A program made the translations under genes and the position numbers. The notes below the pieces were generated by a model. It saw only the letters and a list, made by a program, of their open reading frames with translations. It was not told where the DNA came from and searched no databases. Shown piece after piece: positions 1 through 40,386 of a DNA stretch of 51,043 nucleotides (positions are counted from its first letter, which is position 1; each line of letters starts with the position of its first letter). The DNA lies in NCBI GenBank assembly GCA_002104905.1, contig MCFE01000635.1, positions 1 to 51,043 of the forward strand. Reading direction: 5' to 3'. Source of the stretch: Basidiobolus meristosporus CBS 931.73. Lineage: Eukaryota > Fungi > Basidiobolomycota.

Positions 1-289
1 AGGATTCCCATGCTGCTTTGGAAGTATTTGAGGCATGGATTTGTCCAATGAAGGACTATTGCACATTGATGCATAGGCATTAAAGGCCTTTCTCTCCTTC
101 TCTTGAAGCTTCTCCACATCTTCTGCTGTTCCCCTGGGCTCAATTTCCTTTCCTGTTATTATGTTCCAAAGCTTTCTTTCCTCAAGATGGATCTGCATCT
201 TGATTCTTCAAAGTCTGTAGTTCTTCCCATCAAACCTCTCCTTTACAGGGAAGATGTTGGTATTGCTTTGTTTGCTAGTAGAAGTCATC
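1..289 (-). pseudogene. Ty1/Copia (family B) gag 5' end, decayed
   Basis: Minus-strand translation MTSTSKQSNTNIFPVKERFDGKNYRL*RIKMQIHLEEKKAL matches the Copia gag N-terminal F-x-G-x-NY-x-x-W-x-x-KM pattern; lies directly after PBS and LTR; homologous to 5590-5870. Confidence 0.8.
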
Positions 290-312
290 TTTAGAATAGA
301 TTAAGGCAATTG

Positions 313-324
313 GGGCTCATAACC
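313..324 (-). promoter_or_regulatory. Copia primer-binding site GGTTATGAGCCC (tRNAi-Met anticodon-arm type)
   Basis: Exact 12-mer abutting the LTR end at 325; same site at 5890-5901 and 21607-21618, and with one mismatch at 43044-43055. Confidence 0.85.
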
Positions 325-692
325 TGTTGCAATTTAAGAAGTGATTTGGATATAAGTAACTTATCAAGAAATAGTGATAATAGTTGAACTGTTTTTCATT
401 CATAAAGAAGCTCAGTATTTATACCTTTGTAGAAGTAATACAGCTGCAACACTAAGTAGGGAGGGTGTCTCAATATTTAGGAGCATTCTGTAACAGTTTC
501 AGGGTTAGTACATAATGTTTGGTAATAGTGCTAATTTGATCCTGACTTTAGGGGAATAATCATAAGATCATATATCCAGAGTAAGTGGCAAAGTTAAGGC
601 AGTAAATTAGTCCTACAGTGACCAAGACTAGTCCACAATTGTTAAGTAAATTTTTAGCTGCTGAATGATACCAAATAGTCCAATATTTCAAA
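325..692 (-). repeat. Copia family B 5' LTR (~365 bp); contains the empty MITE target site AAT at 514-516
   Basis: Homologous end to end with 5902-7005 once the MITE is removed, and with 7836-8012; TGTTG terminus next to the PBS. Confidence 0.75.
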
Positions 693-1019
693 TGTATACT
701 AATGGTATTTTGCTAGTATTCAGCTGGTGTTTTAGATTCAAAATTTCAAATGCAACTTCTGATGGAAGTAATGGGCAGCTAATTACCAAATTTTGAATCA
801 ATGCTAGCCTAGTCTCCTCCTGGAGAACTTGTTTGCTTGCCTGCCCATCAGCTAAGAACAGAGATATTGAGAGTTGTCAATTCTGAGAAACTTGGGATTC
901 AGCTGAGACTATGATGGTATTTAGCTGGCCTATTCTCAATTTTTTTTCTTAAGGCAAGTTGGTATTGGTGATCTGCTTCTGGATAAATATTCCTAAAATG
1001 CCCGCATTTGACCCCCAGT

Positions 1020-1780
1020 ATCTCCAATGAACTCTTAGTGTCAATGGCTTCAGAAGGCCACCTGAATCAAAACATATTAAGTACATCCAGTGTTTGCATT
1101 TGTATTGTTGCATATGCATATGAATATTAATCAGAGCCTGTGAGAGTACTTAGGGTAGCAGACACTCTGTAATATCTTGCCAATTCTTTCTAATTTCTTT
1201 GGTATCTCATAGGGCTCATTTAGCTTGAAATGCCCCATGTACAACTTGGACACTGTCATGTTTTTCAACTTTATTTGGTAGTAAAATTAGCCAAACAATA
1301 TTGTGATCCCATCATCAGACTGTGTAAAGGGTCATTGATTTCAAGCTGCCAGTATTATAGCAGTCTCCTGACAGCTGATCTTGATTGGATCCACCCACAA
1401 GAACAAACTATTATTCATCAGGCAGATGTGCTGGGAGATTGGAAGACAAGTCAAGTTGCAGGTACTACCATATTCCAATCTCATCAACAATGTTACCTTC
1501 AAGCTCATCATGGATATGATAGCCCTAACACGCAGGTAATCAGTTAAGTAATCCAAAGTGGGTTAGGTGCAACAAGCAGCAAATTCTTGTTAGGAATACA
1601 CTACCAAGGATTCCAGATTTCCCTTTGTCAAATACAAAATTCCAACATTATTCAGTATGAAATTCACACAAACAAGAGCCATAATCCACCTTTACGGGGG
1701 TTGAGAAGGGAGCAGGAAGTAGTAATATACTGGCTAAATGCCAAGAAGCTCTTTGCTGAGATTCAGGAGATACTATCTAA
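1020..1780. pseudogene. Scrambled CACTA transposase fragments (~1020-1260 minus, ~1425-1780 plus) with a Copia gag scrap (~1260-1420 minus)
   Basis: GGAAGACAAGTCAAGTTGCAGGTACTACC and neighbours match 27610-27640 and 41495-41525; 1260-1420 matches 42490-42610. Confidence 0.65.
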
Positions 1781-1784
1781 CAGA

Positions 1785-2091
1785 AAAAGTTTATTTTGTG
1801 GTATTCACCTAATAATTGATCAAATGTGAAAGTATAAATCAAGCTTTTTCATATTATTGGCAGGACCAGCATGTAGAATGTATCTGGAAAGGACCCAAGA
1901 ATATTTGTTCAGAGTTTGGGGTTGTGTAGACTACTATGAGAGTTTTCATGTTTTGGGTCCTAGGTGTTTTGATGAAAGTTTTTTTAGTCAATGCCACAAG
2001 GAACTTGTTTTGTGTCCCTAAGATTTGTAGGTAGTGGCTTAAGTGACTACACTTGGTGAATATTTAGGTGGAATTACAAACTTTTACAACA
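1785..2091 (-). repeat. Decayed Copia family A LTR
   Basis: Ends GGTGAATATTTAGGTGGAATTACAAACTTTTACAACA, as in 44775-45122; left boundary approximate. Confidence 0.7.
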
Positions 2092-2515
2092 CCAAGTATC
2101 AAAAAGTTCTTTGCACATATTTTTGAGGCATTCATGTCAAAAGTGGTGGCTACAGTTATTTATTTGTAGAATATATATGTTATGAGCTATACAAGGTATA
2201 TGGTAACTCAGCATATATAACACTGAAAGGATGTAAAGTCCAGTTAATAGAAGTGTGTAAATAACAGTAAGTGTGCATATGTAGAGGTTAGTAGGCAGGA
2301 TACCATAGTTATTTTTGATTCAAACTATATATGGAATACCCAAGGTGATAGTAGGTCAACACATACAGAGGGGTGATTATACAGTGGAATTTTTGAATGG
2401 TGCAAGGGGAGGTAGAAAAAGAAAATGCCATTTGATAAGCTGGCATGACATCATTTTACAGTGCTAACTGTAGGCTGCCTTATTGCCAATGGCCAATGAC
2501 TTGAGTGGCTTTCTC
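2092..2515 (+). pseudogene. CACTA 3' fragment
   Basis: Homologous to 39815-40220 and 41890-42290. Confidence 0.6.
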
Positions 2516-2519
2516 ATTG

Positions 2520-3312
2520 GAAATCTCACCAAATTTGGCATCCCAGCTTTTGATCAGCATCTGACTTTTGCCATCATACACTCTGTGCCCTTTAGTATCT
2601 CAACACTTCCCAAGAAGGATGCCTTTTCTACTCTTTGTTTCCAGAACTGAGTGTTGCTTGTCAGGTAAGTCACAAAAAACATCACTGCCAAAGATCCCAG
2701 GATGCTGTGATCTGGTTTGTTGTCTATATATGCTTTAAAATTGTATAGTGGTGTTATTGGGCATTAATTCTTGATATATACTGTAGTAGCAACAGATTCA
2801 GCCCAACACTTGTAGCACATTCCCTTATCATGTAGCATAAATCTTCCCATCTCTGCAATTACTCTATTTGCACATTCTGCTGATCCATTTTGCTGTGGGC
2901 CATGTGGAATAGTAGTCTGTTGAAGTATAACAGTCAATGAGCAGTACTTTACAAACTTCTTTGGGCAGTATTCCACCTCCCCATTGTGACTTTGAAGTAC
3001 CTTCAATCTACACCCAGTTTGCATTTCTTCCATGCTCATGAAGTTTTTAGACATTCTCAGAGCTTCATCCTTTGTCTTGAGGAAGTATACCCATGTATAT
3101 CTTGTCTTGTCATCAATAAACATTATCAAGTATCTTGTGGCACTAAAGGACAGTGCTTTTATAGGCCCAGTTATATATGAGTGCCAAACCAAAATCATCT
3201 AATGTTAATAACAATGTGCCAACTGATTTGGGTGTTAAACATCTTGGTAGTGTTAACATTAAATACAAATAACTCAAACAACCCTTTTCTATTCCTACCT
3301 CTGATACCAGGC
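2520..3312 (-). pseudogene. Ty1/Copia integrase fragment (gag-pre-integrase to post-integrase)
   Basis: ORF 2764-3198: YLIMFIDDKTRYTWVYFLKTK...QSHNGE...PQQNGSAECANR...WAESVATTVYIKN = rve core; downstream TKGHRVYD motif. Confidence 0.85.
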
Positions 3313-3811
3313 CTTTATCTTTGCCAACACCCCAAGCTTTGATTTTACACCTTTAGTCAACAAACTTTCCAGAATTGCTTATAACAAAGATGACTTTCTA
3401 AAATCTGCTTTTAACAGTTTAAATATTTTTTAGGTTGGTCAAACAAATGCATATCAAGAACTTTGCAACAGTGTTATTGTTTTAACTAAATACATTTCTG
3501 ACTTGGCTAATTAGGTAAATGCCATTTCAACTACTCCACCAGTTGTAAGCATTAGTGCTCCTTCATCATTGGCTCCCATTGAAACTGCTCCAGTTAATAA
3601 GGAACCTGGAGAAACTATTATCAAGGAAGTGGACCAAGTATTGGGTGATAAGAATGTTGTCATGATTATTTGTAAGAATGGCAAGCAAGACTTTGATAAA
3701 TTGGACAAGGAAGATATCCAAAAGATTATGGAAACTATTGGCAAAGATGACGTTTATGTTGCAAACTCTTTGTTTAGTGCTGTTACAAACGTTGCTGCCT
3801 TAAATAAATAA
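3311..3811 (+). pseudogene. Orphan ORF X (~165 codons, two in-frame TAG, 5'-truncated by Copia)
   Basis: The frame of track ORF 3569-3811 stays open upstream to ~3311 except TAG at 3431-3433 and 3512-3514: AFIFANTPSFDFTPLVNKLSRIAYNKDDFLKSAFNSLNIF*VGQTNAYQELCNSVIVLTKYISDLAN*VNAISTTPPVV...VAALNK. No recognisable domain. Confidence 0.55.
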
Positions 3812-3884
3812 TTGTTGTGTGCATGATCATATCAACTTTTGATTATTAGACTTTGTAAAAAGTGTTTTTTATCAGATGTTAATA

Positions 3885-4240
3885 TTTTAGATCAAACATA
3901 TCTTATATTAAACTTGAGTGTAAAAAACTTTTTTAAAACAAACTTATCTTGGATCAAACCTCAACGTCTAAACCTGTTTTAAAACAAACTTATCTTGGAT
4001 CAAACCTAAATGTCTAAACCTGTTTTAAAACAAACTAACTTATCTTAGATATAACTCATCTTGGATCGAACTAACTAACTTATCTCATACTAAACTTAAG
4101 CGTATAAAACATTTTTAAAACTAACTAACTCATCTCATATTAAACTTAAGCGTTTAAAGCTAACTAACTCATCTCATATTAAACTTGAGCGTATAAAACT
4201 TTTTAAAACTAACTAACTTATCTTGGATCAAACCTAAACT
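3885..4240. repeat. Modular AT-rich tandem repeat
   Basis: 46-bp unit twice (3931-3976, 3977-4022; 2 mismatches), then shuffled modules AACTAACT, TTATCTTGGATCAAACCT and CTCATATTAAACTTRAGCGTATAAAAC. Confidence 0.9.
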
Positions 4241-4319
4241 TCAACACCTAAAATACTTCTGTCTTCCATGCCCACACCTTTTAAAAAATAACTTCTTACC
4301 TTCTTCAACCATTCCCCAT

Positions 4320-5027
4320 TTAGGGATACCACATTATTGGCATTGTCTCCACCTCATATACCAACATCTCATTCATCCTTATAAATATATTCTCCTCCTC
4401 AAACTTTTTATCCAACCCATTCATATCCCCTATCTTCCCCACTTTTATCAAATACTTTGACCCTATGCAATCTGCTAAATTTATTGCATCCTTCCCTATT
4501 AATATTGTTACTATTCTCCCTCCCCTCTTCACATATATATACTTTAACAGCTCCCTTGTAAACTCTTCCCACAATATTCTATGATTTGCCAAAAATTTAT
4601 CACAATTCACCCCCATCGTAAATCCTACGTTTATCATAAACACCCACTGTGATACCCATTGTCTTAACATCTCTTTTGGCTATGGCATATCTACCTCATA
4701 CTCTAACCCTACTTTCTTTGCCATTAATATTGCCTCCATTGGATTCTTCCTACACTCCAATGACGGTATTAACTCTATCCCTGACGCATACTCTACCCCT
4801 GTCACATTACACACACTATTATACTGCTCTTTACACACTATTACCACCTTTATCTTATCCGGTTCCATCAGTCTTAACATCCTAAACACATTTTTCTTCT
4901 TTGGCAACACTTCCAATTTTGACTCTTTTAACATCTTTAATACTCTCCTCAGTATATCCATGTTCTTCTCAAAAGATTCTTCCCACCTTTTTATCATCAT
5001 GAATATTTCACCTACCAAATCTTCCAT
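4320..5027 (-). pseudogene. Uracil-DNA glycosylase (family 1 UNG)-fold gene, catalytic residues replaced, one premature TAG
   Basis: Track ORFs 4680-5048 and 4320-4670 are in the same frame, separated only by TAG 4682-4680 plus 3 codons; ATG at 5027 gives ~235 codons. UNG motifs in order: VLPKKKNVFRML, IKVVIVCKEQY, TGVEYAS, IPSL, QWVSQWVFMIN, NHRILWEEFTRELL, ILIGKDA, FIRMNEML..PIMW. Confidence 0.8.
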
Positions 5028-5148
5028 CCTTGATGACAAATATACCAAGCTTTACCTCTAAAAACTTATCAATAATGAGAATACCTCCGTTCTTGTTAAA
5101 AATAATATTATTTCTACCAACAAACAAAATCAAAACCTTTTTTATATA
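5008..5148 (-). CDS. 3' end of an orphan ORF Y overlapping the UNG-like start, 5'-truncated
   Basis: 46 open codons YIKKVLILFVGRNNIIFNKNGGILIIDKFLEVKLGIFVIKDGRFGR*; its TGA (5010-5008) lies just downstream of the UNG-like ATG; composition similar to that gene. Below the ORF-track length cut-off. Confidence 0.4.
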   Translation of the reverse strand, partial: YIKKVLILFVGRNNIIFNKNGGILIIDKFLEVKLGIFVIKDGRFGR

Positions 5149-5889
5149 CTAAATTCTGTCAAAAATTCCTTTATGCCAGCTCCTGAAATGTTGCCTAGCT
5201 TTTTTGCTATATGCACAACCCTTACATACATTCAATATGATTGAAACTGAGTAATATAAGCCAAGACAAATTGCTTTTTCACCAAATAGCTCATTTTCTA
5301 TCCCCCAATGCGTCTTAGCCTTCTATGGCATGTCTCCCTGTTTGTTTCCTCAGTTTCAGCAATGTAGACATACACAGGTACAATGATCTTGCATTGTAAC
5401 CTATGTATCTTTTCTTCATCATTTACACCAGCATTAATAAAGTAAAGTTCTTCTGGTAGTGGCTCCAATTGGGTAATAAGTGGTAGCATGTCATCATTTG
5501 GCTTCTTCCTCATGCTGAAGAACTTTTATTTCAATTAAAGCTTGCTTGATACTGACTTTGCTCTAAAGATCTACTTCAAGGACTCACATTTTGCGTTGGC
5601 AGTATTTGAAACATGGATTTATCCAATGAAGGGATCTTTCACATTGATACAAATGGCATTAAAGACCTTTCGCTCCTTCTCTTAAAACTTCTCCACTTCT
5701 TCTGCTGTTTCTATGGGCTTAACTTCTTTTCCTGCTACTATATTCTAAGTGTCCTTTCCTCAAGGTCAATCTGCATCCTAATTCTCCAAAGTCTGTAGTT
5801 CTTCTCATCAAACCTCTCCTTCACAGGGAAGGTGATTGCTTATTCTGTTTGCTGGTAGAAGCCATCTTTAGATTAGGCTAAGGCAATCA
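5149..5889 (-). pseudogene. Copia family B gag / gag-pre-integrase remnant with internal deletion
   Basis: Decayed KVFNAICINVKD...KFFSMRKKPNDDM (gag) joined to CHRRLRRIGG...GCAYSKKARQHF (WHRRLGH...CxxC). Confidence 0.7.
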
Positions 5890-5901
5890 GGGCTCATAAC
5901 C
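5890..5901 (-). promoter_or_regulatory. Copia PBS GGTTATGAGCCC
   Basis: Exact 12-mer abutting the LTR at 5902. Confidence 0.85.
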
Positions 5902-7005
5902 TGTTGCAATTTAAGAATTAATTTGCATAAAAGGAACTCATTAAGAAATATTGATAATAGTTGAACTGTTGTTTATCAATAAAGAAGCCCAGTATTTATA
6001 CCTTTGTTAGGGTAAAATCAATCCAACACTAAGTAAAGAGGGTTTCTCAATATTCCGTAGCATTCTGCAACAATTTCAGGGTTAGTACATAATAGACTTG
6101 TTCCGTTGGATGGTGCCACATTGAGCCATGAGTGCCAAATGATGCCATAGTGTGCCAGGGAGGCCAAATGAGCCTATACTTGGCCACTGAGTGTGAAACA
6201 GAGCTCAGCATCTTCATGCAAAGCTGCCCCTGTGTTTCACTCATGATGTAGCAGAAAATCCATTTTTTGACCTTTTTTTTTAGGTCAATGTAGTGCAGGA
6301 TGTGTAAGAGCACAGAAGAACTGAAGATATGCATCAGGTACGCAATACCCATGGCACTCTGAATCTAGCTCCTGTGGCTTGTAGCATGTCACAAAAATGC
6401 ATGGCACTATCTTGGTCCACTGGTACTATCTGGCACTCTATTTAATTATTAGCCCTAAAGTAAGATCTATACAAAGCAATTATAGTGCCAGCTAGTACCA
6501 GTGGACCAAGATAGTGCCATGCATTTTTGTGACATGCCACAAGCCACAGGAGCTAGATTCAGAGTGCCATGGGTATTGCGTACCTGATGCATGTCTTCAG
6601 TTCTTCTGTGCTCTTTCACATCTTGCACAACATTGATCCACAAAAAAACATCAAAAAATGGATTTTCTGCTACATCATAGGTGAAACACAGGGGCAGCTT
6701 TGCATGAAGATGCTAAGCTCTGTTTCACACTCTGTGGCCAAGTATAGGCTCATTTGGCCTCCCTGGCACACTATGGCATTATTTGGCACTCATGGCTCAA
6801 TGTGGCACTATCCAACAGAACAAGTCTAATGCTTGGTAAAAGTGCTAGTTCAATCTTGACCGTAGGCAACTAACAATACAACAATAGACTTGAAGAAAGT
6901 AGCAAAGTTAGGGCTGTAAGTTAGTCCTAATGTGAACATGACTAGTGCAAGTTTATTAAGTAAATTTAGATGCCAAATGATACCAAATAGTCCAATATTT
7001 CTACA
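5902..7005 (-). repeat. Copia family B LTR interrupted by a MITE; has a PPT upstream and a PBS downstream
   Basis: TG...CA ends; matches 325-692; preceded on the minus strand by RNase H end and purine tract (7016-7006), followed by PBS and gag. Confidence 0.75.
6094..6827. mobile_element. 734-bp palindromic MITE of the AGACTTGTTC (PHIS) family, TSD AAT
   Basis: AAT|AGACTTGTTC...GAACAAGTCT|AAT (6091-6093, 6828-6830); empty paralogous site with a single AAT at 514-516; ~345-bp inverted arms. Confidence 0.92.
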
Positions 7006-7300
7006 CTCTGCTCAACAAATAATTTCCTAATCCTAATTCCTCTTGGAGATTTTTACATTGTGGTCTGGCTAGTGGTTTTGTCAATATATCTGCCACCATT
7101 TTGTTGGTTGGGCAGTAACCTAACTCTACTGAGTTATTTTCTACAGCTTCCCTCACAAAGTGGTGCTGTATATGCATGCACTTAGTTCTGGCATGATTGG
7201 TAGGATTCCTGGTTATTGAGATACAACTTTGAATATCCTTGTAATTACACGATGGTTCATCTGAATTAAGTGATTTCTAAGAGCTGCTTATCCAAGACTA
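7006..7300 (-). pseudogene. Copia RNase H C-terminus plus decayed PPT
   Basis: RNPTNHARTKCMHIQHHFVREAVENNSVELGYCPTNKMVADILTKPLA. Confidence 0.85.
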
Positions 7301-7835
7301 ATTCAGGCAGCAGTAAGCAGTAGACAAAGGATAACTGAATATCTGGAAAGTTAGAGTGTGAGCATTAACATGAAGGATACAAGCTATGAGTAACTCCGTC
7401 TTGATTTTGCTGGTATACTTCACTGATGTCATTACCATTTCTACAACTCCAGCATGTCAGCACACCTCCACACAAACTACGCTAACCTCCTTCATAATAG
7501 CACCACACACCAAATCAACATACTCAGCTCAAAGTAAAGCTATCAGAATTCATCAAACTGCACATTTACACACTGGTCCCCTGAAGAGTCCCAGGTCACA
7601 TTTGCATATGGCATCCCGGCAGAGTTAGCAAAGGGCCATGCCCAAATATCATGTTGTTCCTGCACATGCTGTTACACCAGACCATCAGCATGTTGCTTCT
7701 GGTAAGCTTACTGATCAAGGCACATCCAAGAACCTTAACTGCAGGAGCCTTTAGTAGGAACAGAAACTCATCAGCAAGTGACACTCCAGGCTGGATCTAT
7801 AAATCATTTGGTTCAGTCCAGCATGATCAAGATTT

Positions 7836-8012
7836 TGTTGAAATATTGGACTATATGGTATTATTCAGCAGCTAAAAATATATTTAACAATTCAGGACTA
7901 GTCTTATTCACCGCAGGACACATTTGCATCCATAACTTTGCCACTCTCTCAGATCTATGATCTTATGATTATTCCCCAATTGTCTAAAGCAAATTAGCAA
8001 TTTTCAAACAAT
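7836..8012 (+). repeat. Partial Copia family B LTR
   Basis: TGTTGAAATATTGGACTA... is the reverse complement of the 325-692 and 6828-7005 LTR end. Confidence 0.75.
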
Positions 8013-8118
8013 AGACATGTTCTGTTGGATAGTGCCACATTGGGCCATGACTTCCAAGTAGCGCCATTGTGAGCCAAAAAGGCGTAGCAGATCTAAACTT
8101 GGTCTCAGAATGTGAGTT
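8013..8118 (+). mobile_element. AGACTTGTTC-family MITE end, truncated by the old Gypsy LTR
   Basis: AAT|AGACATGTTCTGTTGGATAGTGCCAC; closer to the 20420-20524 arm than to the 6720-6827 arm. Confidence 0.8.
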
Positions 8119-9360
8119 TGTTTTGATCTACCACTTGAATGTTTAAGTTAGATTTGTTTTTAGTCAAAAGGACAATGATACACTCAAATAAGTCATCAGC
8201 CACAGCCTACATCAGGAAATACAATTAATTGGCAATTGATCTGGCAAAATGTATATAAGGAGCTGCTGGAACCTCAATAAAAATCAGTTCAAGTTTTAGT
8301 GAATACAATACTAGCTAAGCTCTCTATGCCTCTACAACTCTTATATCAAGACTTGTAACATTGATAGCAGCAATAACCAGAAACCTTCTCCTGAAGTAAG
8401 AAGAAGCCTCCCTCAAGATGTCCAAAAATCAAGAATGAAAGAGTCCTATGCAACAAATCCTGGCTCAGCAGCAACAGCTACTCCAGATCCTTAGCCAGCA
8501 GCAACAAGGAATGACTACCATGGCCCAAAGCCAGCAAAATCCTGTCAAGTGCAACATTAGTGTGAAGGTCAACCAGTATCATGGTGGAGTCAACAAAAAT
8601 CTGGGAACTTGGCTCTTCCAGATTGAAGACACTTCTGAGGCTAAGGGAATTGCTCCAGAAAGCAAGTTATATTATGCAGCCTCTTACCTGGCAGATGCAG
8701 CTTTTCAGTGGTACCATAACAAGATCAGTTTGGCCACCTTAATGCAATGCTCTACAATCTCTACCTGGGATGAGTTTATGTTGGAAATTCAAGATGCCTT
8801 TAAGCCCCCTCACCAACAGACACTACTAAGAAGAAAGTTGAAGACAGTAAGGATGAAGTTCAATGACTATGAAGAAGATCTACAGGCCTATATATTTGGA
8901 AACTACAGTATGACCTTGTACTTAGGAAAACCTTGCTATTTGTTGTAATCCATTAATTAACTGGAGAACCCATGCTACTCAGATCCAGAAGGACAACAAG
9001 ACCTATGAGCTATTACCTGCCAGGCTGGATTTTAACTTGATCAATTCCAGTGTGTGTGAAACAAGTGAGCATAGTAAGACACAGTTCTGTAGTGCACTAC
9101 GAAAAGGCACCCAGATGTTCCTCATGGCAGTATAACAGGAGGTTCCTCTACTCTAGCACCCCAGAAGGTCCAGACTCTTTTGAAGGAATATTCAGATGTA
9201 TTTCCTGATAAGCTTGTAAGCCTGTTACCAGTCAGGGGCAAAGATCATGCCATTGAAACAGGAGATAGCCCTCCAGTAAGTAAAATATCTTACAGAGAGA
9301 GTCCATTGCATTGGAAGAGATGAAGAGACAAATAGATCAGTTACTGGTGCAAGGATATAT

Positions 9361-9728
9361 TGTTATGATCTGCCGCTTGAATGTTTAAGTTAGATCAGTT
9401 TTTAGTCAAATCAATTAGTATATGTTTAGGTTATCAGTATATCAGTATTATCTATGAAATCAGTAGCATTAGTCAGCAAATGAATCAGCAGATCCTTATC
9501 AGACAGAAAAAGATATATTAAGTAGGATCTTATTGGGTGATGATGATGCAATCAAATGAGTCATCAGCCACAACCTACATTAGGAAATACAATTAGTCAG
9601 CAATTGATCTGGCAAAATGTATATAAGGAGCTGCTGGAACCTCAATAAAAATCAGTTCAAGTTTTAGTGAATACAATACTAGCTAAACTCCCTATTCCTC
9701 TACAACTCTTATACCAAGACTTGTAACA
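9361..9728 (+). repeat. Gypsy 5' LTR (TGTTA...TAACA); TATA and AATAAA present
   Basis: Appears identical to 13931-14298. Confidence 0.97.
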
Positions 9729-9729
9729 T

Positions 9730-9740
9730 TGGTAGCAGCG
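9730..9740 (+). promoter_or_regulatory. Gypsy PBS TGGTAGCAGCG (3' end of tRNAi-Met type)
   Basis: TGG 1 nt after the LTR; TGGTAGC is the Ty3-type initiator-Met PBS start. Confidence 0.8.
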
Positions 9741-9786
9741 ATAACCAGAAACCTCCCTCCTGAAGAAAGAAGAAACCACCCTCAAG

Positions 9787-12700
9787 ATGTCGGACAATCA
9801 AGAATGGAAGAATGCCATGCAGCAAATCCTGGCCCAACAGCAACAGCTACTCCAGATCCTCAGCCAACAGCAACAAGGAATGACTACCATGGCTCAGAGC
9901 CAGCAAAGCCCTGTCAAGAGCAACTTTAGTGTGAAGGTCAACCGGTACCATGGCAGAGTCAATGAAAACCTGGGAACTTGGCTCTTTCAGATTGAAGAAG
10001 CTTTTAAAGCTAAAGGAATTGCTCCAGAGAGCAAGTTGCATTATGCAGCTTCTTACCTGGCAGATGCAGCTTTACAGTGGTACCACAACAAGATCAGGTC
10101 AGCTACTATGATGGGATGCTCTACAATCTCTACCTGGGATGAGTTTGTGTCGGAAATTCAGGATGCTTTTGAACCTCCACACCAGCAGACACTACTAAGA
10201 AGGAAGTTAAAGACACTCAGACAGAAAGGAATGGTGCAAGAATACATCTATGAGTACAGATGTCTACTTGGACAAATTGAAAGAATGGACCCCTTGGATC
10301 AAGTTGAATACTTTATTGATGGGTTGAAAGAAAGAACTCGCAAGGAAGTCAATTACCGAAGACCTCAGACTATTGAAGAAGCCATCAAGATTGCCATTGA
10401 CTATGACTCAGCTATGTTTGGAGTTGGGAAGCCTACAGTGACTAGTCAGAAAGGCTATAATCATTATGAAAGAAGACAATCAGAAGCAGTACCAATGGAA
10501 ATAGACGCTATGCAGAAGAATCCCTCCTCAGAAGAATGCAAGAAGAGAGGACTTTGCTTCAATTGCCACCAGCAGGGACATATTGCAAAGTACTGCCCTC
10601 AGAGAAAAAATGGACACCAGCCAACAAGAACCTTCAACCATATTGAGTCCCATGAACACAGTAATGTGGAAGATGAGCTTGAAGAAGACTCGGAACTCAC
10701 CTTCCATATGACAGAAGAGTACTTGTCCCAAATGACTTCAAACTCAGGGAAGTTATTGTACCTGAATGGAGCAATCAATGGAGTACCTGCCAAGATCATG
10801 ATTGACTCAGGAGCATCGCATGAGTACATGTCAGAGCAATTTGCTTTGAAAGCTGGAATCAATTCGGAACCTACCAAATCAACTTCAGTCTCCACAGCTG
10901 ATGGGAACTCCCACATAATCAACCGTATTACCCAGCCAGTAAGAATGAAGATCAATGACTATGAAGAAGACCTACAGGCTTATATATTTGGGAACTGCAA
11001 GTTTGACCTTGTACTTGGGAAAACCTGGCTATTTTGTCGTAATCCATCAATCAACTGGAGAACCCATGCTACTCAGATCCAAAAAGACAACAAGACCTAT
11101 GAGCTATTACCTGCCAGGCTGGATTTCAACTTGGTCAATTCCAGTGTGTGTGAGACAAGTGAACTTAGCAAGACCCAGTTCTGTAGAGCACTTAGAAAAG
11201 GTACCCAGATGTTCCTCATGGCGGTATTACAGGAGGATTCCTCTATCCCAGCACCCCAGCAGGTCCAGACTCTCTTGAAGAAATATTCAGACGTGTTTCC
11301 AGATGAGCTTGTAAGCCTACCACCAGTCAGAGACGTGGATCATGCCATTGACACAGGAGATAGCCCTCCAGTGAGCAAGACACCTTACAGAATGAGTCCA
11401 TTGGAATTGGAGGAAATGAAGAAACAAATTGATCAGCTATTGGAGCAAGGATACATCAGGCCCAGCAAGTCACCTTGGGGAGCACCAGTGCTTTTTGTGA
11501 AAAAGAAGGATGGAACACTTAGGATGTGCATTGACTACAGAGCCCTGAACTCAGTTACCGTCAAGAATAAGTACCCCATACCTCGGATTGATGAGCTTTT
11601 GGACCAACTTAATGGAGCCACTATTTTCAGCAAGATCGACCTCATGTCAGGATACAACCAGATTAGGGTGAAACCAGAAGATATCCCTAAGACAGCATTC
11701 AGGACCAGATATGGACATTACGAGTACTTAGTCATGAGTTTTGGCCTCACTAATGCCCCTGCAACATTCATGACGCTGATGCAGACTGTCTTTCAGGAGT
11801 ACTTAGACAAGTTTGTGATAATCTACCTGGATGACATATTGATATACAGCAAGACAGAAAAGGATCACATGGTGCACATTGAAAAGGTCTTGAAGAAACT
11901 AAGAGAGAACAAGCTATACGGCAAGCTAGCCAAGTGTGAATTCTTCAAGGAACACGTAGAATATCTGGGACACATAGTGACTAGCACAGGAGTAACCTTA
12001 GACCCCAAGAAGGTGGAAGTAATCAAGAATTTGAAGCAGCCCCATAGCATATCAGAACTCAGATCCTTCCTTGGGATGGTTTCCTATTATCGGAGATTTG
12101 TCAAGTCATTTGCAAGTATTGCAGCCCCTTTAACTGATATCCTCAAGAAAGACAATACCTACAAGTGGGACATAGCTTGTGAGACTGCCTTCCAGACACT
12201 AAAGAATGAACTTGCTAAGCTGCCAAGCTTAAGAATACCTGACTTCAGAAAAGAGTTCACTCTGTGCACAGATGCTTCAGATTATGCAATTGGTGGAGTG
12301 CTGAGCCAAGAACACGAGGGAAAGGACTACCCTGTTGCCTTTGAATCCAAGAAACTGAACTCAGCAGAACAAAACTATCCAGTTCATGAGAAGGAGATGC
12401 TTGCTATAATACACTGTTTGAAGACATGGAGATGCTATATTGAAGGAGTCAAATGCACTGTGAAGACTGATCATGCCTCCCTCAAGTATATATTTACTCA
12501 GAAGGTACTCTCTAGAAGAATGACAAGATGGAGTGAGTACATTCAGCAATTTGACCTGGAGATTGTCTACTGTCCTGGAAAAAACAACACGGTTGCTGAT
12601 GCCTTATCAAGATTAGATCAAGTTGCACAACTCAACTTGGTGCATGAATCAGATTGGCCTAGCCTATTACCAAAGTACTTGGAGGACCAAGCCATTCCTA

Positions 12701-13920
12701 ATGAGGTGGATGAAGATATCAAGAAGATAATCCGTGATGAGGCCAGCAAATTTGTTGTACAGAATGAAACACTCTACCAAATTGTTGATGGAAGCCCTAT
12801 TGCCTATTGTCCTTATGTTGCTCGCCTGGATTTAATACATAAGCTACACAATGGATATGGACATCTTGGGATTGAAGGAACCTATAGCCTTGTAAAAGCC
12901 AGAGCATGGTGGCCCAGAATGAAACAAGACATTGAGAAGCTAGTAAAAACATGCCCAAACTGCCAAATCAATCAAGGCCAGCCACAAAGAATTGCCGAAC
13001 TCTTCCCTTTGGAGCCTGTAAGACCATTTGAGAGATGGGGAATTGACTTTATTGGAAGACTGCCAACTACCAGGAAATGCAACCGTTGGATCCTAGTAGC
13101 AATTGACCATGCCACTAAATGGCCAGTTGCTAAAGCTGTACCAATAGCCAGTGAACAAGAAGTTGCAAGTTTCATTTACCATGAGATCCTGATGAAGTTT
13201 GGATGCCCTGTGGAGATCTTATCCGATAGAGGTGCAAACTTTATGGCAAAGACATTAGAGGCTTACCTGGAAATGCAGCAGATCAGACACTTGAAAACCT
13301 CGGCATATCACCCCAGAACTAATGGAGTCACTGAGCGGTTTAATGGATTATTTGGAAAAATGCTGACCAAGTATGCAAATGGAGTTGTCAGTAGATGGGA
13401 TGAGTATATAGACCAAGCACTCTTTGCATGCAGAGTCAGAGTACACAACACCACCCAGCAATCACCATTTTACTTAGTTTATGGATGTGAACCAAGGATT
13501 CCAGGAGATCTCACACAACCAAAGCTTACAGACACCTTAGAAGATGAACTCAGTCAGCCAAGTAGACACCAGCAACTGGAACAAAGACGTCAAGAGGCAC
13601 AGACCAAAGTATCTCAAAGTGCAGAAAAGATGAAGCAGAGATTTGATAAGACTATAGCACCAGAAGCATTGACAGTTGGGAACTTTGTATTGCTAAGAAA
13701 CAACACTCGGAAGAAGTTTGAGCCACAATGGACAGGACCATTCAAGATCATCAGAGAATGTCCATTTGCAACTTACCAACTGGTGGACAAGCAAGGTAAT
13801 ATCCGGGAAGACTTAGTGCATAGGGACAGACTCAAGCTTGCAAGACTTGCTGATAATACTGAACCATCAAGATATTGGTATCACAAGAAAAGAGATTCAG
13901 GAGAACCCTCTCAACTTTAG
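9787..13920 (+). CDS. gag-pol: Gag-Pol polyprotein, 1377 aa, single ORF (capsid, CCHC knuckle, PR, RT, RNase H, IN with GPY/F; no chromodomain)
   Basis: [14 protein letters not shown]; MIDSGAS; [11 protein letters not shown] and YLDDILI; [12 protein letters not shown]; H..GH...CPNC, IDFIG, SDRG, ERFN; WTGPFKI. Confidence 0.97.
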
Positions 13921-13921
13921 T

Positions 13922-13930
13922 AGGGGAGAA
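13922..13930 (+). promoter_or_regulatory. Gypsy polypurine tract AGGGGAGAA
   Basis: Immediately 5' of the 3' LTR. Confidence 0.9.
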
Positions 13931-14298
13931 TGTTATGATCTGCCGCTTGAATGTTTAAGTTAGATCAGTTTTTAGTCAAATCAATTAGTATATGTTTAGG
14001 TTATCAGTATATCAGTATTATCTATGAAATCAGTAGCATTAGTCAGCAAATGAATCAGCAGATCCTTATCAGACAGAAAAAGATATATTAAGTAGGATCT
14101 TATTGGGTGATGATGATGCAATCAAATGAGTCATCAGCCACAACCTACATTAGGAAATACAATTAGTCAGCAATTGATCTGGCAAAATGTATATAAGGAG
14201 CTGCTGGAACCTCAATAAAAATCAGTTCAAGTTTTAGTGAATACAATACTAGCTAAACTCCCTATTCCTCTACAACTCTTATACCAAGACTTGTAACA
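13931..14298 (+). repeat. Gypsy 3' LTR
   Basis: Appears identical to 9361-9728. Confidence 0.97.
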
Positions 14299-16255
14299 AT
14301 ATCAGACCCAGCAAGTCACTGGAGGAGCACCAGTACCTTTTGTGAAGAAGAAGGATGGAACACTTAGGATGTGCATTGACTACAGACCCCTCAACTCAGT
14401 TACTGTGAAGAATATGTACCCCATACCTTGGATTCATGCACTTTTGTACCAACTCAATGGAGCCACTATTTTCAGCAAGATTGACCTCATGTCAGGATAC
14501 AACCAAATTAGGGTGAAACCAGAAGACATCCCTAGCACAGCATTCAGGACAAGATATGGACATTACAAGTAATTAGTCATGAGTTCTGGGCTCACCAATG
14601 CCCCTGCAACATTCATGACCCTGATGTATACTGTGTTCAAGGAGTACTCAGACAAGTTTGTGATAATCTAACTTGATGATATATTGATATACAGCCAGAC
14701 AGAAGAGGATCATTTGGTGGACATTGAAAAAGGCCTTGAAGAAGCTAAGAGAGAACAAGCATTATGGCAAGCTACCCAAGTGTGAATTCTTTGAGGAACA
14801 CATTAAATAACTGGGACACATAGTGAATAGAACAGGAGTAGCCGTAAACCCTAAGAAGGCTGAACGTATCAAGAATCTGAAGCAGCCCCATGGCATATCC
14901 AAGATTGGATCATTCCTTGTAATAGTTTCCTATTATTGGAGATTTGTCAAGTCCTTTGCAAGTATTGCAGCCCCATTAACTGATATCCTCAAGAGAGGCA
15001 ATACCTACAAGTGGGACATTGCTGGTGAGACTGCCTTCCAGACACTCAAGAATGAACATGCTAAGCCGCTTAGCTTAAAAATACCTGACTTCAGAAAAGA
15101 GCTTACTCCTGGCACAAATGCTTCAGATTATGCAATTCGTGAAGTGTTGAGCCAAGAACATGAGGGAAAGGACTACCCCATTGCCTTAGAATCCAGGAAA
15201 CTGAACTCAGCAAAACAAAACTATCCAGTGCATGAGAAGGAGATGATTGCTATAGTACACTGTTTGAAGACATGGAGATGCTATATTGAAAGAGTCAAAT
15301 GCACCATGAAGACTGATCATGCATCCCTCAAGTATGTATTTACTCGGAAGGTACTCTCTAGAAGAATGACAAGATGTAGTGGATACATTCAGCAATTTGA
15401 CTTGGAGATTGTCTACTGCCCTGGAAAAAACAACACGGTTGCTGATGCCTTATCAAGATTAGAACAAGTTGCACAACTCAACTTGGTGTATGAATCAAAT
15501 TGGCCTAGCCTATTACCAAAGTACTTGGAGGACCAAGCCATTCCTAATGAAAAGGATGAAGATATCAAGAAGTTGATCCAGGATAAAGGCAGCAAATTTG
15601 TAGTACAGGATGAAACACTCTACCAAATTGTTGATGGAAGCCCTATTGCTTATTGCCTGTATGTTTCTTGCCTGGATTAAACACATAAGCTACACAATGG
15701 ATATGGACATCTTGGAATTGAAAGAACCTATAGCCTTGTAAAAGCCAGCGCATGGTGACCCAGAATAAAACTTGACATTAAGAAGCTAGTGAAAAATACC
15801 CAAATTGCCAAATCAACCAAGGCCAACTGCAGAGAATTGCTGAACTCTTTCCCTTGAAGCCTGTAAGGCCATATGAAAGATGGGGAATTGACTTTATTGG
15901 AAGACTGCCAACTACCAGGAAATGCAACCATTGGATCCTAGTAGCAATTGTCAACGCCACTAAATGGCCAGTGGCTAAAGCTGTACCTATAGCCAGTGAA
16001 CAAGAAGTTGCAAGTTTCATCTACCAGGAAATCCTTATGATGTTTGGATGCCCTGTAGAGATTCTATCCAATAGACAATCATATTAGTCATCAGCCACAG
16101 CCTACATTAGGAAACACAATTAGTCAGCAATTGATCTGGCAAAATATATACAAGGAACTGCTGGAATTTCAATAAAGATCAGTTCAAGTTTTAGTGAATA
16201 CAATACTAGCTAAACTCCCAATTCCTCTATAACTTATATACCAAGACTTGTAACA

Positions 16256-19120
16256 GCAAACGGAATTTTGCTGGGCTCATGCAGTGTACTATTGTTAGGG
16301 GTGATAGGCTCACAATCCATCAGTGGGCCTTCTCCTTCAGAGCTATAACTCTGCATACCATACTCAACATGCTGAGGTGCACTCAATGTGTCATAAATAC
16401 ACCTGACTCAGTCAGGGCAAGGTGACCTGTATAACTAGGTGCCAATATAGAAGTATCAAGAGGCTTGCAAGATATTGTTGGTACACTTGTGACTGATGAA
16501 TGGTAATATTGGTCTTGTGTGGCAAAACACATGCTGTGATCATTGTATTACTTCCTATGCTGTATGTGTGCTTTATGGCTGAGAAACCTGTTACAATAGC
16601 CACATGATCTTTTTTTGCTTCTCTTATGACATTGATTCAAAGTGGTGATCATGATGGGGCAAACAGTCTGGCATTCAGCAATGAAATACTATTATGTCAC
16701 TTTTTGTCAATACTCATATAACATAAGACAGTTCTGTAAATGCAACATTGTACCTACATAAATGTAGGATCAAATTATGCTCCCCATAGTAAGAATATAA
16801 ATAAAGTTGCACCACTACAAACACAGGTTTAGGTAGTACTATTTCCCCTTTGGTTTGACTTACTTCAGTATATATTCTGCCAAAAATAAAGCGAAGTTGT
16901 CTGGTTCCCAATTAAACCCTACTGTTGATTGTTGCAGAAGAACAGTTGGACAACTGCTTGCTTTGGCATTCCTTTCAATAGACAAGACTATACCCAAAAA
17001 AGGCCATGTTTGCAGTGTGCCCTCCAAAGGTAAAAATGCAGACTTCTCAGGTTATCAGTCAAGTAGGCAAATGAGAATCTCTGCAGCACCACAAGCTGAC
17101 CATTATGCACATACATACAAAAATGCAGCAATTGGAGTACCCTTGGCTGAAGACCACCAAGTGGCTGCAATAATTTCACCACCACCCATATTAGTAAGTT
17201 TGTTGTCAGCTCAGGCCAAAGCATTAATGAGGCAATTAGGTGCAGTGGCTGATAACATAGATGCAATAGCCTAGAGAAACAAGCAAATAGTCTTAAACAG
17301 GATGAGTGTACAATACATGTAGAGCAGTCAATATCTCAGGCAGAGAACACAGTACATTGGCTACAATGAAGCAACTCAAATAGCTCACTGCTACAGCCAA
17401 GAGTTAAGCCATTTCCCAATGTAACAGCGGAGAAGTACAGCACAATCTTTGGAGCTCAACAATAGTGCCAAAAGATGGAACTCCCAAACAACCTATCACA
17501 ACACGGGAAGGTGAGACTGTAATATGAATACCAGAACATAAAAATCAAAAGTCATTGGAGATCCATGAAGCCATAGAGTGCCACACTGCCAAGTGGCCTA
17601 AAATTTCAGAGGCCACATGTAGGGCTAGCCTGACATCTTCTTCAGGTCAGCATACCATAGAATCATCAGGAACCCAAGGCCAAACATAATGTGCATGAGC
17701 TACTCTATAAGCATTATCCTGGATTCAAGCAAGCAAACAGATCTTGTGCTACCACTGGTATGCTAAGAGAGTATCTCAAGAATAGCAGAAGCAATCAAAG
17801 AAAGAGGAACAAGGATGCTACAGCTCAAAACTGGTGGCCTTCTCAAGAGCTTGTCACAGGCAAGGCTGAAGTTCCCAACAAGTGGCAGTGAAATGTCAGG
17901 TTGCCAGGAGAGTGCTAGCAAGGGACAAGCTGGCAAAAACAAATGCACTGGTGCAGCATGCATCAAGGAGAAAACAAAGTGCAATACAAGTTGCACTCAG
18001 CCAAAGTAGCAGTGCAAGACTTGGCAGAAATAAAGGTTAAGGTAAAGAGAAAGACTCTACCCAAGCCAGAGGCAGGGAAGCATGAGAAAAAAGCTGCAAT
18101 CTTCACCTATTGATGCCACCAGCCTAGACCAGGGTGACTCCCATTGTAGGTAAGAAGAATTGCAAACAAAGCATAATCTGTGTTTTCAAGAGTTGGAAGT
18201 GAAGCTACTTGAGCTCTACTCCAGTAACGTAGATGAGTTTGCAGACAAAGGTAACTTGTCTAACATAGCCTCTATGTACTCCATTGTAGACAGAGTGGAG
18301 ATTTAGCTGACACACTAAGCAAAGTCATTTAAAACTCAAAAGACTATCAAAATGCCTATAGTGGAATTTAGTACATTGATATACATACCAAGGGGTTGCA
18401 GTGCTAAATATCAGCTTATGCACGTAAATATTTCACAAATGTATGAACTAAACCTCATGGTTGCTAATCCTATATTTATAAACAAAAAAAATTCAAACTT
18501 GTCTTAAATGTATCTTTTTTTTTAATTTAAATTGGAGCTAAAAACCAACTTACAGTGCTGGCTGAAGACCATGATATATGGGAACCAGTGAATGCACAGT
18601 GGCATAAAGCTGCAGGGTTCCCACTAAAGTCATAGGAGGAGTGCATCACAGCAGAAGTACTTATTGAATAGTGAAATTTAATGGAGTTATTTGATGAGTA
18701 TTGAGTTAGGCTTAATGTTAGTGGTGGGTACCTGTGCTTGTATAGGTCAATTTAATTTGCAATTGAGGTGCAGCTGAAGTTTCAGCAGAAATCAAACAGT
18801 TTGTATGCATGAGAAGTAAGACAATTGGTTGAGTTGGGAAGTATGGAGTATGAAAAGGGGTAACAATCAATCAATATGCACAATATAGGAGGTGCATGAG
18901 TGTCTGGTATCAGAAAGTGAGAGAATTGGCAGCAGACCAGTCAAAAGCCACTTACGTATTGTTGTGATGAGAAACTTTCACTAAGCTTTTTGTGAAATCT
19001 GGGGTGAGATTTTTTTCAGTGATCTTTTCACAGTGTCCTGATGGGATCATTTCCTCTTTGTTACATGACTTTAATTTTGTAATGGCCATGTGATGGGATC
19101 ATCACAATTTCTTCTCATTG
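16256..19120 (+). mobile_element. Decayed CACTA element, orphan-ORF arm (inverted paralog of ~23780-26130)
   Basis: Colinear reverse-complement homology, e.g. 16290-16340 with 26040-26100, 16880-17080 with 25430-25630, 18550-18620 with 24260-24330, 18900-19050 with 23840-23990. Confidence 0.7.
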
Positions 19121-19551
19121 CACTTGCTGATCCACACTTATATCCTTTTCTGGTCCTGCCTTGACAAACTCTACTCTCCTGTCTTGTGTCTGTTCATAAC
19201 AGTTTATTCAGCCTGCTCCTGACTTACCCATGAAATACTGCCTTCTACCCAAGGTTCTTGAGTAGAAATTGCAAGGGAATACCTACTATAAGTACACCCT
19301 GAGTCTTTCCCTAGTCCTGTCCCATAAAGGCAAAGATAAAGCATCTTTGCCAAATATTGGCCAAGGCTGCATTGACTTTATTACCCAGCTGGTGTATCTT
19401 ACACTGTTACACTGTTGGAAGCTTTAGTACAAAACTCCATCAAAGATGTCAGAGCCAATACCATCTAAAGTGACACTAACCTATCCAAAGCTGGGATTTT
19501 GGCTCAATTATTGTACTCATGACAAACCAATGGCTTCACAACCCACATATT

Positions 19552-20524
19552 AGATTTGTTCTGTTGGATAGGGCCACATTGAGCCATGAGTGCCAAGTGG
19601 TGCCATATTGTGCCAAGGAGGCCAGTTGAGCCTATACTTGGCCACAGAGTGTGAAACATACCTCTGCATCTTCATACAAAGTGGCCCCTGTGTTTCACCC
19701 ACTGTGCCAGACAAAATCCACTTTTTGACTTTTTTTGAATCAATGTTATGCATGATGTATAAGAGCACAAAAAGGACTTGTTCCATCATTCCAGCTGATC
19801 ATGGTGCCCAATAGTGCCATAGCATGCCAGATGGTGCCTGGTCATGCCACAGAGTGCCAGATGGTGTCATATAGTGCCAATTTAGGATCAAAATTGACAT
19901 GCATATGACCCTGAATATCAAATTAATAACAAAATATACAGCACTTTTTGGCACTATGATCAATGGCACAATGGAACAAGTCTAAAGATTAAAGATATGC
20001 ATTGGGTACTCAGTACCCATAGCACTCTGAATCTAGCTCCTGTGGCTTGTATCATGTCACAAAAATGCATGGCACTCTCTTAGTCCACTGGTACCATCAG
20101 GCTCTATATTTAAACATTAGCCCTTAAGTAAAACTATACTTAAATATTAGCCCTAAAGTAAGACCTATATAAAGCACTTATAGTGCCAGATAGTACCAGT
20201 GGACTAAGATAGTGCCACGCGTTTTTGTGACATTATACAAGCCACAGGAGCTAGATTCAGAGTGCCATGGGTATTGAGCATCAGATGCATGTCTTCAGTC
20301 CTTCTGTGCTCTCACACATTCAGAACAATTTTGATCCAAAAAAAAGGTCAAAAAATGGATTTTCTCCAGCACAATGTGTGAAACCCAAGGGCTGCTTTGC
20401 ATGAAGATGAAGAGTCATGTTTCACACTCTGTGACCAAGTTTAGGTCTGCTATACCATTCTGGCACGCAATGGCACTATTTGGCACCAACGGCTCAATAT
20501 GGTACTATCTAACAGAACAAGTTT
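19552..20524. mobile_element. AGACTTGTTC-family palindromic MITE, TSD ATT
   Basis: ATT|AGATTTGTTCTGTTGG ... AACAGAACAAGTTT|ATT (19549-19551, 20525-20527); arms homologous to 6094-6827. Confidence 0.85.
19774..19983. mobile_element. 210-bp mini-MITE nested in the larger MITE, 3-bp TSD AAA
   Basis: AAA|GGACTTGTTCCAT...ATGGAACAAGTCT|AAA; removing it plus 3 bp restores the length of the uninterrupted arm at ~6305-6330. Confidence 0.75.
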
Positions 20525-20591
20525 ATTGGCTGAAAATATACAGTATTCCTAAATAAGTCCAGGAGACTTCTCTGCCTCCTACTACCCTGTA

Positions 20592-31381: not shown

Positions 31382-32200
31382 TTATGCTTCATGATGCTCC
31401 AGACACATTTCTCTCAGTGGATGGCTTCTTGTATGAGCATACTGTGCATTAATAAGTATCTTAACTATTTTACCAATTCTGCTGTTTTCTCCTATAAATG
31501 ACTTTTCTCTGTATTTACCTGCCAATATGCTGAATCTCTTCAGATATCCAAATGTGTGCTCCACCCTCACTATGAAATGATTAAATATCTCATTGTAGGG
31601 CTTCTGCTTCCTGCTAAGCACACCGTTCCTTGGCTTCCTATAAGCTGTAATACATCTTAATCTGTGAAAATCCTCTCCTATATAGGCTAAGTCTGACATA
31701 CATTTCTCCCCTCTACTGAATTCAGGATGATTCTCTACCCAGAGTGCTTTGTCATGCCTACTTCCAGCATATGGCCCACTAAACCAGATGATGTTACCGT
31801 CAATGTCAGACAGTGCTTGAAACTTCACACAGTGTGCCTTGTACTTGCCGGAATAAAAGTGCCTCTGCCCTCTAGAAGGTCTGTTGATCCTCACTGGGAA
31901 GGTATCCAAAATACTCCTGATATGAAACCTGTTGCTGAACACTCTGGGATATGGAAGTCTATTGGAGCTTCTGAACCTAGTATTCCAAGCTTGCTCCAAG
32001 TCATTCATACACTCTGCAAGGTGGTTCTCCATTGCTGTCAGCTAGGAATGAAAACTTCTAGGACTTTTGTTGACATGGATGGTGGGATAAAACCTTGTAG
32101 GGCAATAGTTCTTGTAATAGCAGAGAAGCTTAACAAGGGATCTCCTTGAGTAGATTGGGGTAGATGGTCCACAGCACTTGGATTAGATCTCCTCTAGTGT
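31382..32200 (-). pseudogene. DDE_Tnp_4 (PHIS / IS5-like) transposase
   Basis: ILDTFPVRINRP, FYSGKYKAHCVKFQALSDIDG, YAGSRHDK, SDLAYIG, RVEHTFGYLKRFSIL (D-D-E triad). The frame extends upstream past a TAG at 32044-32042 into an HTH-like LVKLLCYYKNY segment. Confidence 0.88.
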
Positions 32201-40330: not shown

Positions 40331-40386
40331 ATTTAGACTACAACATTACTATGCAACCCTTGCCAAAATACTGCACAAACAAAACA

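Follow-up and report, generated by a model that had tools for sequence, protein, structure and literature searches.

A decayed gene cluster inside a split Copia element of Basidiobolus meristosporus, likely derived from a fundsalphavirus-type DNA replicon

A small cluster of apparently intron-free, closely packed genes lies between Copia sequences in a 51,043-nt contig of Basidiobolus meristosporus CBS 931.73 (the whole of this stretch is called the window here), and it raises the question of whether a piece of a foreign, compact genome has been captured in a fungal chromosome. The window itself is a transposon-filled, CpG-depleted eukaryotic stretch (CpG o/e 0.00-0.43 per kb). Our preferred answer, to which we give a probability of about 0.85, is that positions 3195-5165 are a decayed internal fragment that interrupts one Copia element and has its origin in a fundsalphavirus-type element; we understand such elements as small DNA replicons, related to Pithovirus, that live in early-diverging fungi. 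The features on which this reading rests are as follows.

2500..3194, minus strand: 3' half of a Copia element, integrase core and downstream part, degenerate (tblastn; Pfam rve, E 0.0011)
3195..5165, no strand: the island, a likely internal fragment of a fundsalphavirus-type element; no terminal inverted repeat (TIR) or target-site duplication (TSD) of its own found
3305..3811, plus strand: ORF X, an orphan gene of the element, with in-frame TAGs at 3431 and 3512
3885..4257, no strand: modular intergenic repeat of 39-50-nt units, in the spacer on which ORF X and the glycosylase gene converge with their 3' ends
4320..5000, minus strand: family-1 uracil-DNA glycosylase (UDG) pseudogene, with a TAG at 4680-4682
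4999..5172, plus strand: likely 5' half of a TFIIS-like gene, head-to-head with the UDG, with a TAA at 5059
5008..5148, minus strand: "ORF Y", antisense shadow of the TFIIS-like gene
5166..5950 (outer limit approximate), minus strand: 5' half of the Copia element, with gag and the GAG-pre-integrase motif (tblastn)

The island and the Copia element around it

Copia sequence does flank the island on both sides, as the original prediction held, but the two "fragments" are halves of one element. Using a fuller window Copia protein, tblastn placed gag at 5672-5394 and the GAG-pre-integrase/Cys motif at 5235-5179 (residues 268-286), and the integrase resumes from 3198, where residues 295-401 match 3198-2875 and further pieces reach 2501. 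Since residues 286 and 295 border the island on the same strand, the flanks represent a single Copia split in pol. Island-free Copia copies among the contigs of run X1 join 3188 to 5178 via 33 other letters, and the loss of Copia sequence at the insertion was at most 33 nt.

Summed depth in X1, which may be the source sample and not independent, was 136-598 inside the island versus 3,472-314,271 in the Copia flanks. X1 contig 1 matches 4911-5165 and then continues for 626 unaligned letters. In addition, run X5, from another study, contains contigs over 3195-3290, 3277-3897 and 4318-5133 at a depth of 12-15 that are 83-92% alike, and these continue beyond 3195 on the left and beyond 5133 on the right with letters that do not align. 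X1 holds several copies, and X5 two or more at low depth; no listed contig spans either junction. Because the X1 and X5 contigs run past both ends, the island is a low-copy, internal piece of something longer, as had been anticipated, with bounds of about 3195-5165 by homology to the other copies and not 3311-5148 as first proposed.

Both ends of the island fall inside genes. We found no end-to-end inverted repeat, and the island has neither an integrase nor a TIR or TSD of its own. The label "giant mobile element" in the original prediction is therefore not supported. An 8-nt target duplication at 3217/5174 was considered and rejected: a 7-of-8 match is expected by chance over so many positions, and the left word belongs to the element because a low-depth X5 contig matches from 3195. 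Similarly, TGGTATCAGAG at 3310-3300 was rejected as a Copia primer-binding site, as it is positioned inside the island.

Genes, repeat and base composition of the fragment

The frame of the UDG is open from 5051 to 4320 except for one TAG, and homologues suggest a start at 5000 or 4997. The gene is intron-free, as predicted, yet the in-frame stop makes it a pseudogene. In active family-1 UNGs, GQDPY forms the water-activating loop and the His of HPSP belongs to the catalytic motif. The window UDG has neither of these motifs nor an open frame: CKEQY stands in place of GQD/SPY and the HP motif is absent, and we expect the product to be inactive. At the TAG, and at the fourth codon of the catalytic motif, other copies carry different letters; part of the damage is therefore private to the window copy.

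Likeness to family-1 UNGs (mimiviral, bacterial and herpesviral enzymes, and vaccinia D4) remains clear in sequence and fold. A phmmer search of the PDB at E up to 1 gave 27 solved relatives, among which the mimivirus UDG came first (E 4e-11), with bacterial and herpesviral UDGs behind it at about 1e-5. A model built with a 32-row alignment reached pLDDT 92 and has the UNG fold (TM about 0.8 to family-1 UNGs), its best viral structure matches being Solivirus and Pithovirus LCPAC102/101; folding of the single sequence gave a pLDDT of only 32. Neither Pfam, applied to the window protein and to each of its halves, nor a word-seeded search recognised a UDG, whereas HMMER run without an index detected it. 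Among 1.84 billion representatives the best matches were environmental proteins, from E 2.5e-35 down. No close relative of the UDG was found in viral or metagenome contigs, and the clade alignment retrieved none from prokaryote genomes.

The UDG and the TFIIS-like frame share the CATG at 4998-5001 as overlapping starts. From its ATG at 4999, the plus-strand frame scored 44 against the N-terminus of the TFIIS at locus L076, compared with 21.8 +/- 3.8 for shuffled sequences (none of 1000 as good). This protein was also the best match among 33 proteins of relatives (z 5.4, 0/300 shuffles), followed by the TFIIS of L161 (z 2.5). The likeness was significant against one of the three TFIIS proteins tested, marginal for another (equalled by 31 of 1000 shuffles, out of register) and absent for the last (117 of 1000); the codon-position and silent-site pattern fits the plus strand. 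TFIIS lies head-to-head with the UDG, with overlapping starts, in relatives L001, L002 and L076, and a UDG next to TFIIS, a trait of several described fundsalphavirus loci, is thus found here too, on the strength of that one significant comparison. It is likely that the right junction cut the gene before its zinc ribbon.

The minus-strand ORF Y had been taken for a gene overlapping the UNG-like one. We regard it as the in-register antisense shadow of the TFIIS-like gene, in view of the head-to-head TFIIS in relatives, the plus-frame alignment and the silent sites. ORF Y shows no likeness to the three TFIIS proteins (206-721 of 1000 shuffles as good), and its fourfold sites (A3 T6 C2) run contrary to the minus-strand purine bias. 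Its TGA does lie just past the UNG-like ATG as described, but other copies differ at both codons; they differ at the TFIIS TAA, the ORF Y TGA and the ATG at 5027. The GAGGT once offered as a ribosome-binding site occurs four times in 891 nt versus 2.3 expected from composition, and we put it down to chance.

ORF X was correctly placed on the plus strand, though two TAGs interrupt its frame, and in-frame stops are present in all three island genes (ORF X, UDG and TFIIS-like). With stops read as X, it finds one match among 21 candidates, ORX94369.1 of Basidiobolus meristosporus, at 82% identity over 133 aa. No Pfam family was found for ORX94369.1, no usable match for this homologue in the ESM Atlas, no counterpart of ORF X among the 33 proteins of relatives and no close relative in viral contigs. 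A 156-aa gene of L076 was rejected as a homologue, since it falls outside the top six. To judge from the codon-position pattern, the start of ORF X probably lay left of 3305, beyond a frameshift, and the left junction cut the gene at its 5' end.

The modular repeat of the original prediction is confirmed as seven copies of a 49-nt unit at 3889-4257; tandem-repeat (TRF) arrays were detected as well, and the units could be parsed. It folds no better than shuffled sequence (z 0.22) and has no Rfam match, and a role as structured RNA or DNA was rejected on these grounds. Nor is it a sequence homologue of the repeats in relatives, to which no match was found. Elsewhere in the window, a modular array of ACCCCTTTA-type units with a telomere-like look occupies 35148-35310.

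Strong strand skew, the other compositional claim made for the island, is borne out. G makes up 6.1% of the plus strand at 4250-5140, compared with a lowest G or C of 13.4-13.9% in other 891-nt stretches of the window, and the skew is -0.65 versus -0.28 to +0.26 elsewhere. At fourfold sites of the UDG coding strand (A31 G28 T2 C1), 59 of 62 are purines (p 2e-12 against 0.55), and the corresponding counts are T34 A17 C11 G1 for ORF X and T9 C7 A1 G0 for TFIIS. Because these three oppositely facing genes are all pyrimidine-rich and nearly G-free on the plus strand, the bias follows the DNA strand and not the message; purine loading of mRNA was rejected as its cause, the silent sites of ORF X and TFIIS being pyrimidine-rich. 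A bias of the DNA strand points to asymmetric replication in this lineage. Neither the transposons of the window (0.51-0.59 purine) nor 25 genes of L161, L164 and L076 (0.26-0.59 purine) show it. Post-integration CpG decay likely adds to it, Met making up 7.7% here versus 3.4% in 22 relatives. CpG o/e is 0.27 in the island versus 0.77-1.41 in the genes of relatives.

Relatives and known systems

In a UDG tree of 84 rows, comprising 69 rows (the clade of a first tree plus NCBI-sourced members) and 15 outgroup rows, the window UDG groups with P0002 and P0006 (SH-aLRT 97). A 57-row clade (SH-aLRT 92) contains these three and the UDGs of L001 and L002, and a 69-row clade (SH-aLRT 91) adds the UDG of L076 (P0007). 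This was a quick IQ-TREE run with SH-aLRT only, midpoint-rooted, on rows that include no named reference, be it a moss, Pithovirus or Basidiobolus host UNG. A 30-row UDG subclade sits on contigs of 60-124 kb. In a rough census of 68 clade rows, GQSPY occurs in 35, AQSPY in 8 and GQDPY in 7, and the HP motif in 61; most members (P0002-P0320) therefore carry Ser for the catalytic Asp (GQSPY/AQSPY, 43/68), with HPVxR for HPSPL. Vaccinia D4 is a UDG that acts as a polymerase cofactor, and it is tempting to speculate that the Ser-for-Asp UDG of this clade might do likewise.

The loci of UDG-clade members hold what the 2-kb fragment lacks, namely D5, the D6/D11 helicase, RPB2, RPB5 and a split RPB1. 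The L001 record (17,169 bp) encodes PolB, a capping enzyme, the D6/D11 helicase, a lectin-like secreted protein, the N-half of RPB1, primase, UDG and TFIIS, and has 127-bp inverted ends that are partly repeated inside; the 127-bp inverted end of L075 was rejected as a proven terminus because 57 nt of it recur internally. The L002 record (35,106 bp, 33.6 kb of it read) adds the C-half of RPB1, RPB5, DUF5757, RPB2 and D5, together with what is presumably an SSB-like gene, labelled by position. A modular repeat family occupies most spacers of this 35,106-bp record (L161 + L164), which also encodes two large secreted proteins. The L161/L164 record is a near-complete fundsalphavirus-type genome with no match to a capsid family, and L075 shares gene blocks with it at about 86% in inverted order. 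The best solved relatives of the L075 PolB (Pfam DNA_pol_B) are Pol delta and archaeal PolB.

Locus L076 (19.6 of 27.9 kb read) has the same gene set plus a flap nuclease, and since it ends at a fungal VID27 gene we consider it integrated; its positions 1-19602 are not CpG-depleted. A 51,666-bp record (L167 + L170), found by its helicase and RPB2, carries local tandem repeats, a DNA ligase, a second helicase, a peptidoglycan-binding lysozyme and a GNAT gene; 38 kb of it were read, with 9.8 kb in the middle unread, and the read part contains no UDG. A cap methyltransferase family match was found in L167 only, and L158, L159, L162 and L168 gave weak matches. A metagenome scan for the clade covered 3 of 64 parts and yielded 80 loci, among which L076 alone was accepted into the clade and the other top scorers were ordinary UNGs.

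The original prediction had named PolB, packaging ATPase, capsid and integrase as genes to seek in longer copies. PolB is present in the relatives, whereas Pfam matched no capsid, A32 ATPase or VLTF3 family in 57 proteins (31 + 26) from four relative loci, and no integrase or recombinase was found among them. These 57 include one host VID27 gene and come from incomplete records; the PF04451 control matched nowhere, and divergent capsids can escape Pfam.

Fundsalphaviruses were described by Gong, Zhang and Han in 2020 from PolB relics in fungi, Basidiobolus meristosporus included, among retrotransposons (PMC7017919). With these relics and those of a moss (PMC4083422) already known, the source is not an undescribed virus, contrary to the original prediction. 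The window fragment resembles them in being endogenous, decayed and beside a retrotransposon in Basidiobolus (PMC7017919), as attested here by the stops, the Copia flanks and the ORX94369.1 homologue. The relatives share with them D5, the D6/D11 helicase, cap methyltransferase, RPB2, RPB5, split RPB1 and a B-lectin, and in the available supplement UDG appears in 11 places, including beside ZnF_C2C2/TFIIS in Mortierella and moss (PMC7017919). On the other hand, the group is defined by PolB, which is absent from the fragment, and no UDG appears at the five Basidiobolus loci that the paper draws; its available parts do not mention modular repeats, strand bias, ORF X or a possible high-copy form (PMC7017919).

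The NCLDV-like regions of the moss Physcomitrella patens (Maumus 2014) have the same core of PolB, D5, SNF2, split RP1, RPB2, RPB5, TFIIS, UDG, SSB, FLAP and U10, and are likewise methylated nuclear fragments with no capsid or packaging ATPase (PMC4083422). By eye, the moss U10 resembles the DUF5757 gene. They differ in their plant host, in UDGs that look more canonical by eye (GQEPY, HPSP) than those of the window clade, and in that LTR elements insert into the viral regions, whereas here a viral piece sits in an LTR element (PMC4083422).

The virus-like elements (VLEs) of yeasts and zygomycetes, the zymocin-type killer plasmids, are also capsid-less cytoplasmic DNA replicons with secreted accessory proteins, an NCLDV-derived RNA polymerase, helicase and capping enzyme, and high read depth (PMC13348850, as far as accessible), and by analogy they may serve as a model for how the parent element works. 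Membership was rejected because VLEs have a protein-primed PolB and measure 9-13 kb in yeast according to the same accessible text, unlike the relatives here, with a delta-like PolB (L075), D5, primase, UDG and TFIIS on 35-52 kb or more. Mycodnaviridae are large-DNA-virus sequences in early-diverging fungi too; in the available part of their description, they were found by major capsid protein, are kin of Algavirales/Imitervirales and form 200-290-kb bins, and earlier fungal endogenous elements fall in clades distinct from them (PMC13533422). On that comparison the island is unlikely to be one of them, and the Asfuvirales-like Rhizophagus region was rejected as the same thing on the accessible part of PMC10640383. 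The available part of PMC12142844 holds nothing specific to this element. Our search for later accounts of the group, of Basidiobolus giant viruses and of capsid-less relatives returned only these papers; subscription papers and bioRxiv supplements may bear on the point. The element most likely belongs to the fundsalphavirus group and works like its members. The lack of capsid and ATPase matches among the 57 proteins, the modular intergenic repeats, the strand base bias and the deep X5 contigs described below are offered as new leads.

Origin of the fragment and a deep relative

The UDG clade and the gene content of its loci support the central claim of the original prediction, a fragment of a foreign, compact genome of large-DNA-virus type. 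The parent would have carried its own RNA polymerase, capping enzyme, TFIIS, PolB, D5 primase-helicase and UDG, and with such a gene set we infer that it would replicate and transcribe in the cytoplasm from intron-less, tightly packed genes. It is likely that a chromosome which broke within Copia captured a stretch of the element, or of a nuclear copy that predated this one, in the manner of NUMTs or nuclear plasmid copies: the stretch is cut inside genes, 33 nt or less of Copia was lost and there is no TSD. After insertion this stretch was likely methylated like its neighbours and then decayed by CpG loss and stops, leaving a fragment that would be unable to move or replicate.

Another explanation is that the island comes from an ordinary capsid-forming giant virus of hundreds of kb (Pimascovirales/Mycodnaviridae), of which the small relatives would be only fragments. 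The Pithovirus and Solivirus fold matches, the 60-124-kb contigs of some clade UDGs and the incomplete records, searched by a method that can miss capsids and whose control matched nowhere, fit this idea. We nevertheless think it unlikely, as none of the 57 proteins matches capsid, A32 or VLTF3, 33.6 of 35.1 kb of one record was read, and the moss regions were likewise reported to lack capsid and packaging ATPase (PMC4083422). Less probable still is an origin as cargo or as a component of a giant nuclear transposon with viral genes (Starship-, Polinton- or Teratorn-like): several diverged nuclear copies in a TE-dense setting would suit it, but the island ends inside genes and lacks terminal inverted repeats, its copies continue past both ends, and the 57 proteins of relatives include no integrase or recombinase; in the absence of such enzymes, termini or a target duplication, membership of these families was rejected. 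Least credible is a paralogue of the host UNG, whether processed or captured, or else a chimera made in assembly, which the unbridged junctions and the other letter shown by the sole X1 contig at the UDG stop would allow, but against which stand the viral clade of the nearest UDGs, the recurrence of ORF X, UDG and the TFIIS start at equal low depth (12-15) in the run of another study, and Copia halves that resume within 33 nt, improbable for a random misjoin.

The relic itself adds a further fragment to a group of small relatives of giant viruses that is already described, though poorly understood. Its value is as a handle on a question that dates from 2014: relics of the group in moss and fungi never show a capsid, and the donor has never been seen. 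Public data now include near-complete 35-52-kb relatives and, in X5, two UDG contigs of 632 and 300 nt (about 80% and 87% alike, matching window positions 4349-4670 and 4821-4932) at depths of 6,622 and 8,474, which is 540-700-fold above the low-depth copies, the run type being a guess and contig depth not being copy number. Four loose ends assigned to these contigs by length, and selected for differing from the window, keep the UDG frame, are G-poor (13 G, 42 C) and contain 6 CpG in 112 nt (counted by eye) versus 5 in 708 nt here. As only the UDG matched, the deep form is a cousin and not the donor. It is possibly a live episome, although amplification of a repeat, a library made from RNA or a second organism in the sample would give the same picture.

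From the great depth of this relative comes a hint that extrachromosomal multiplication of such elements may continue today. We tentatively propose, as an idea that is more doubtful than probable, that fundsalphaviruses are not fossils of lost giant viruses but exist today as a class of DNA replicons of 35-60 kb, without capsids, in the cytoplasm of early-diverging fungi. Their PolB would be primed by RNA, and they would have their own transcription machinery, secreted cargo and modular repeats between genes. In the X5 organism one would still be multiplying, with hundreds of copies for each genome, and shedding pieces into the nucleus, and in the present lineage asymmetric replication would have nearly removed silent-site G from one strand. 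If the X5 form is an episome, a minimal capsid-less relative of giant viruses could be isolated from a culturable fungus, and both the Ser-for-Asp UDG and strand-biased replication would be directly testable.

The remainder of the window is rich in other repeats. A 738-bp near-perfect palindromic element (92%) lies at 6093-6828, with relatives at 19545-20528. Positions 9745-13920 hold an uninterrupted 1,391-codon Ty3/Gypsy gag-pol frame, likely young, with decayed copies at 8439-8948 and 14811-16087. The frames at 31382-32041 and 39128-39649, and at 27166-27813 and 40306-41620, are putative Harbinger/DDE-type and Plavaka-like transposases. Finally, a 108-codon frame described as "thrice-repeated" occurs at 28719, 37183, 38143 and 48996.
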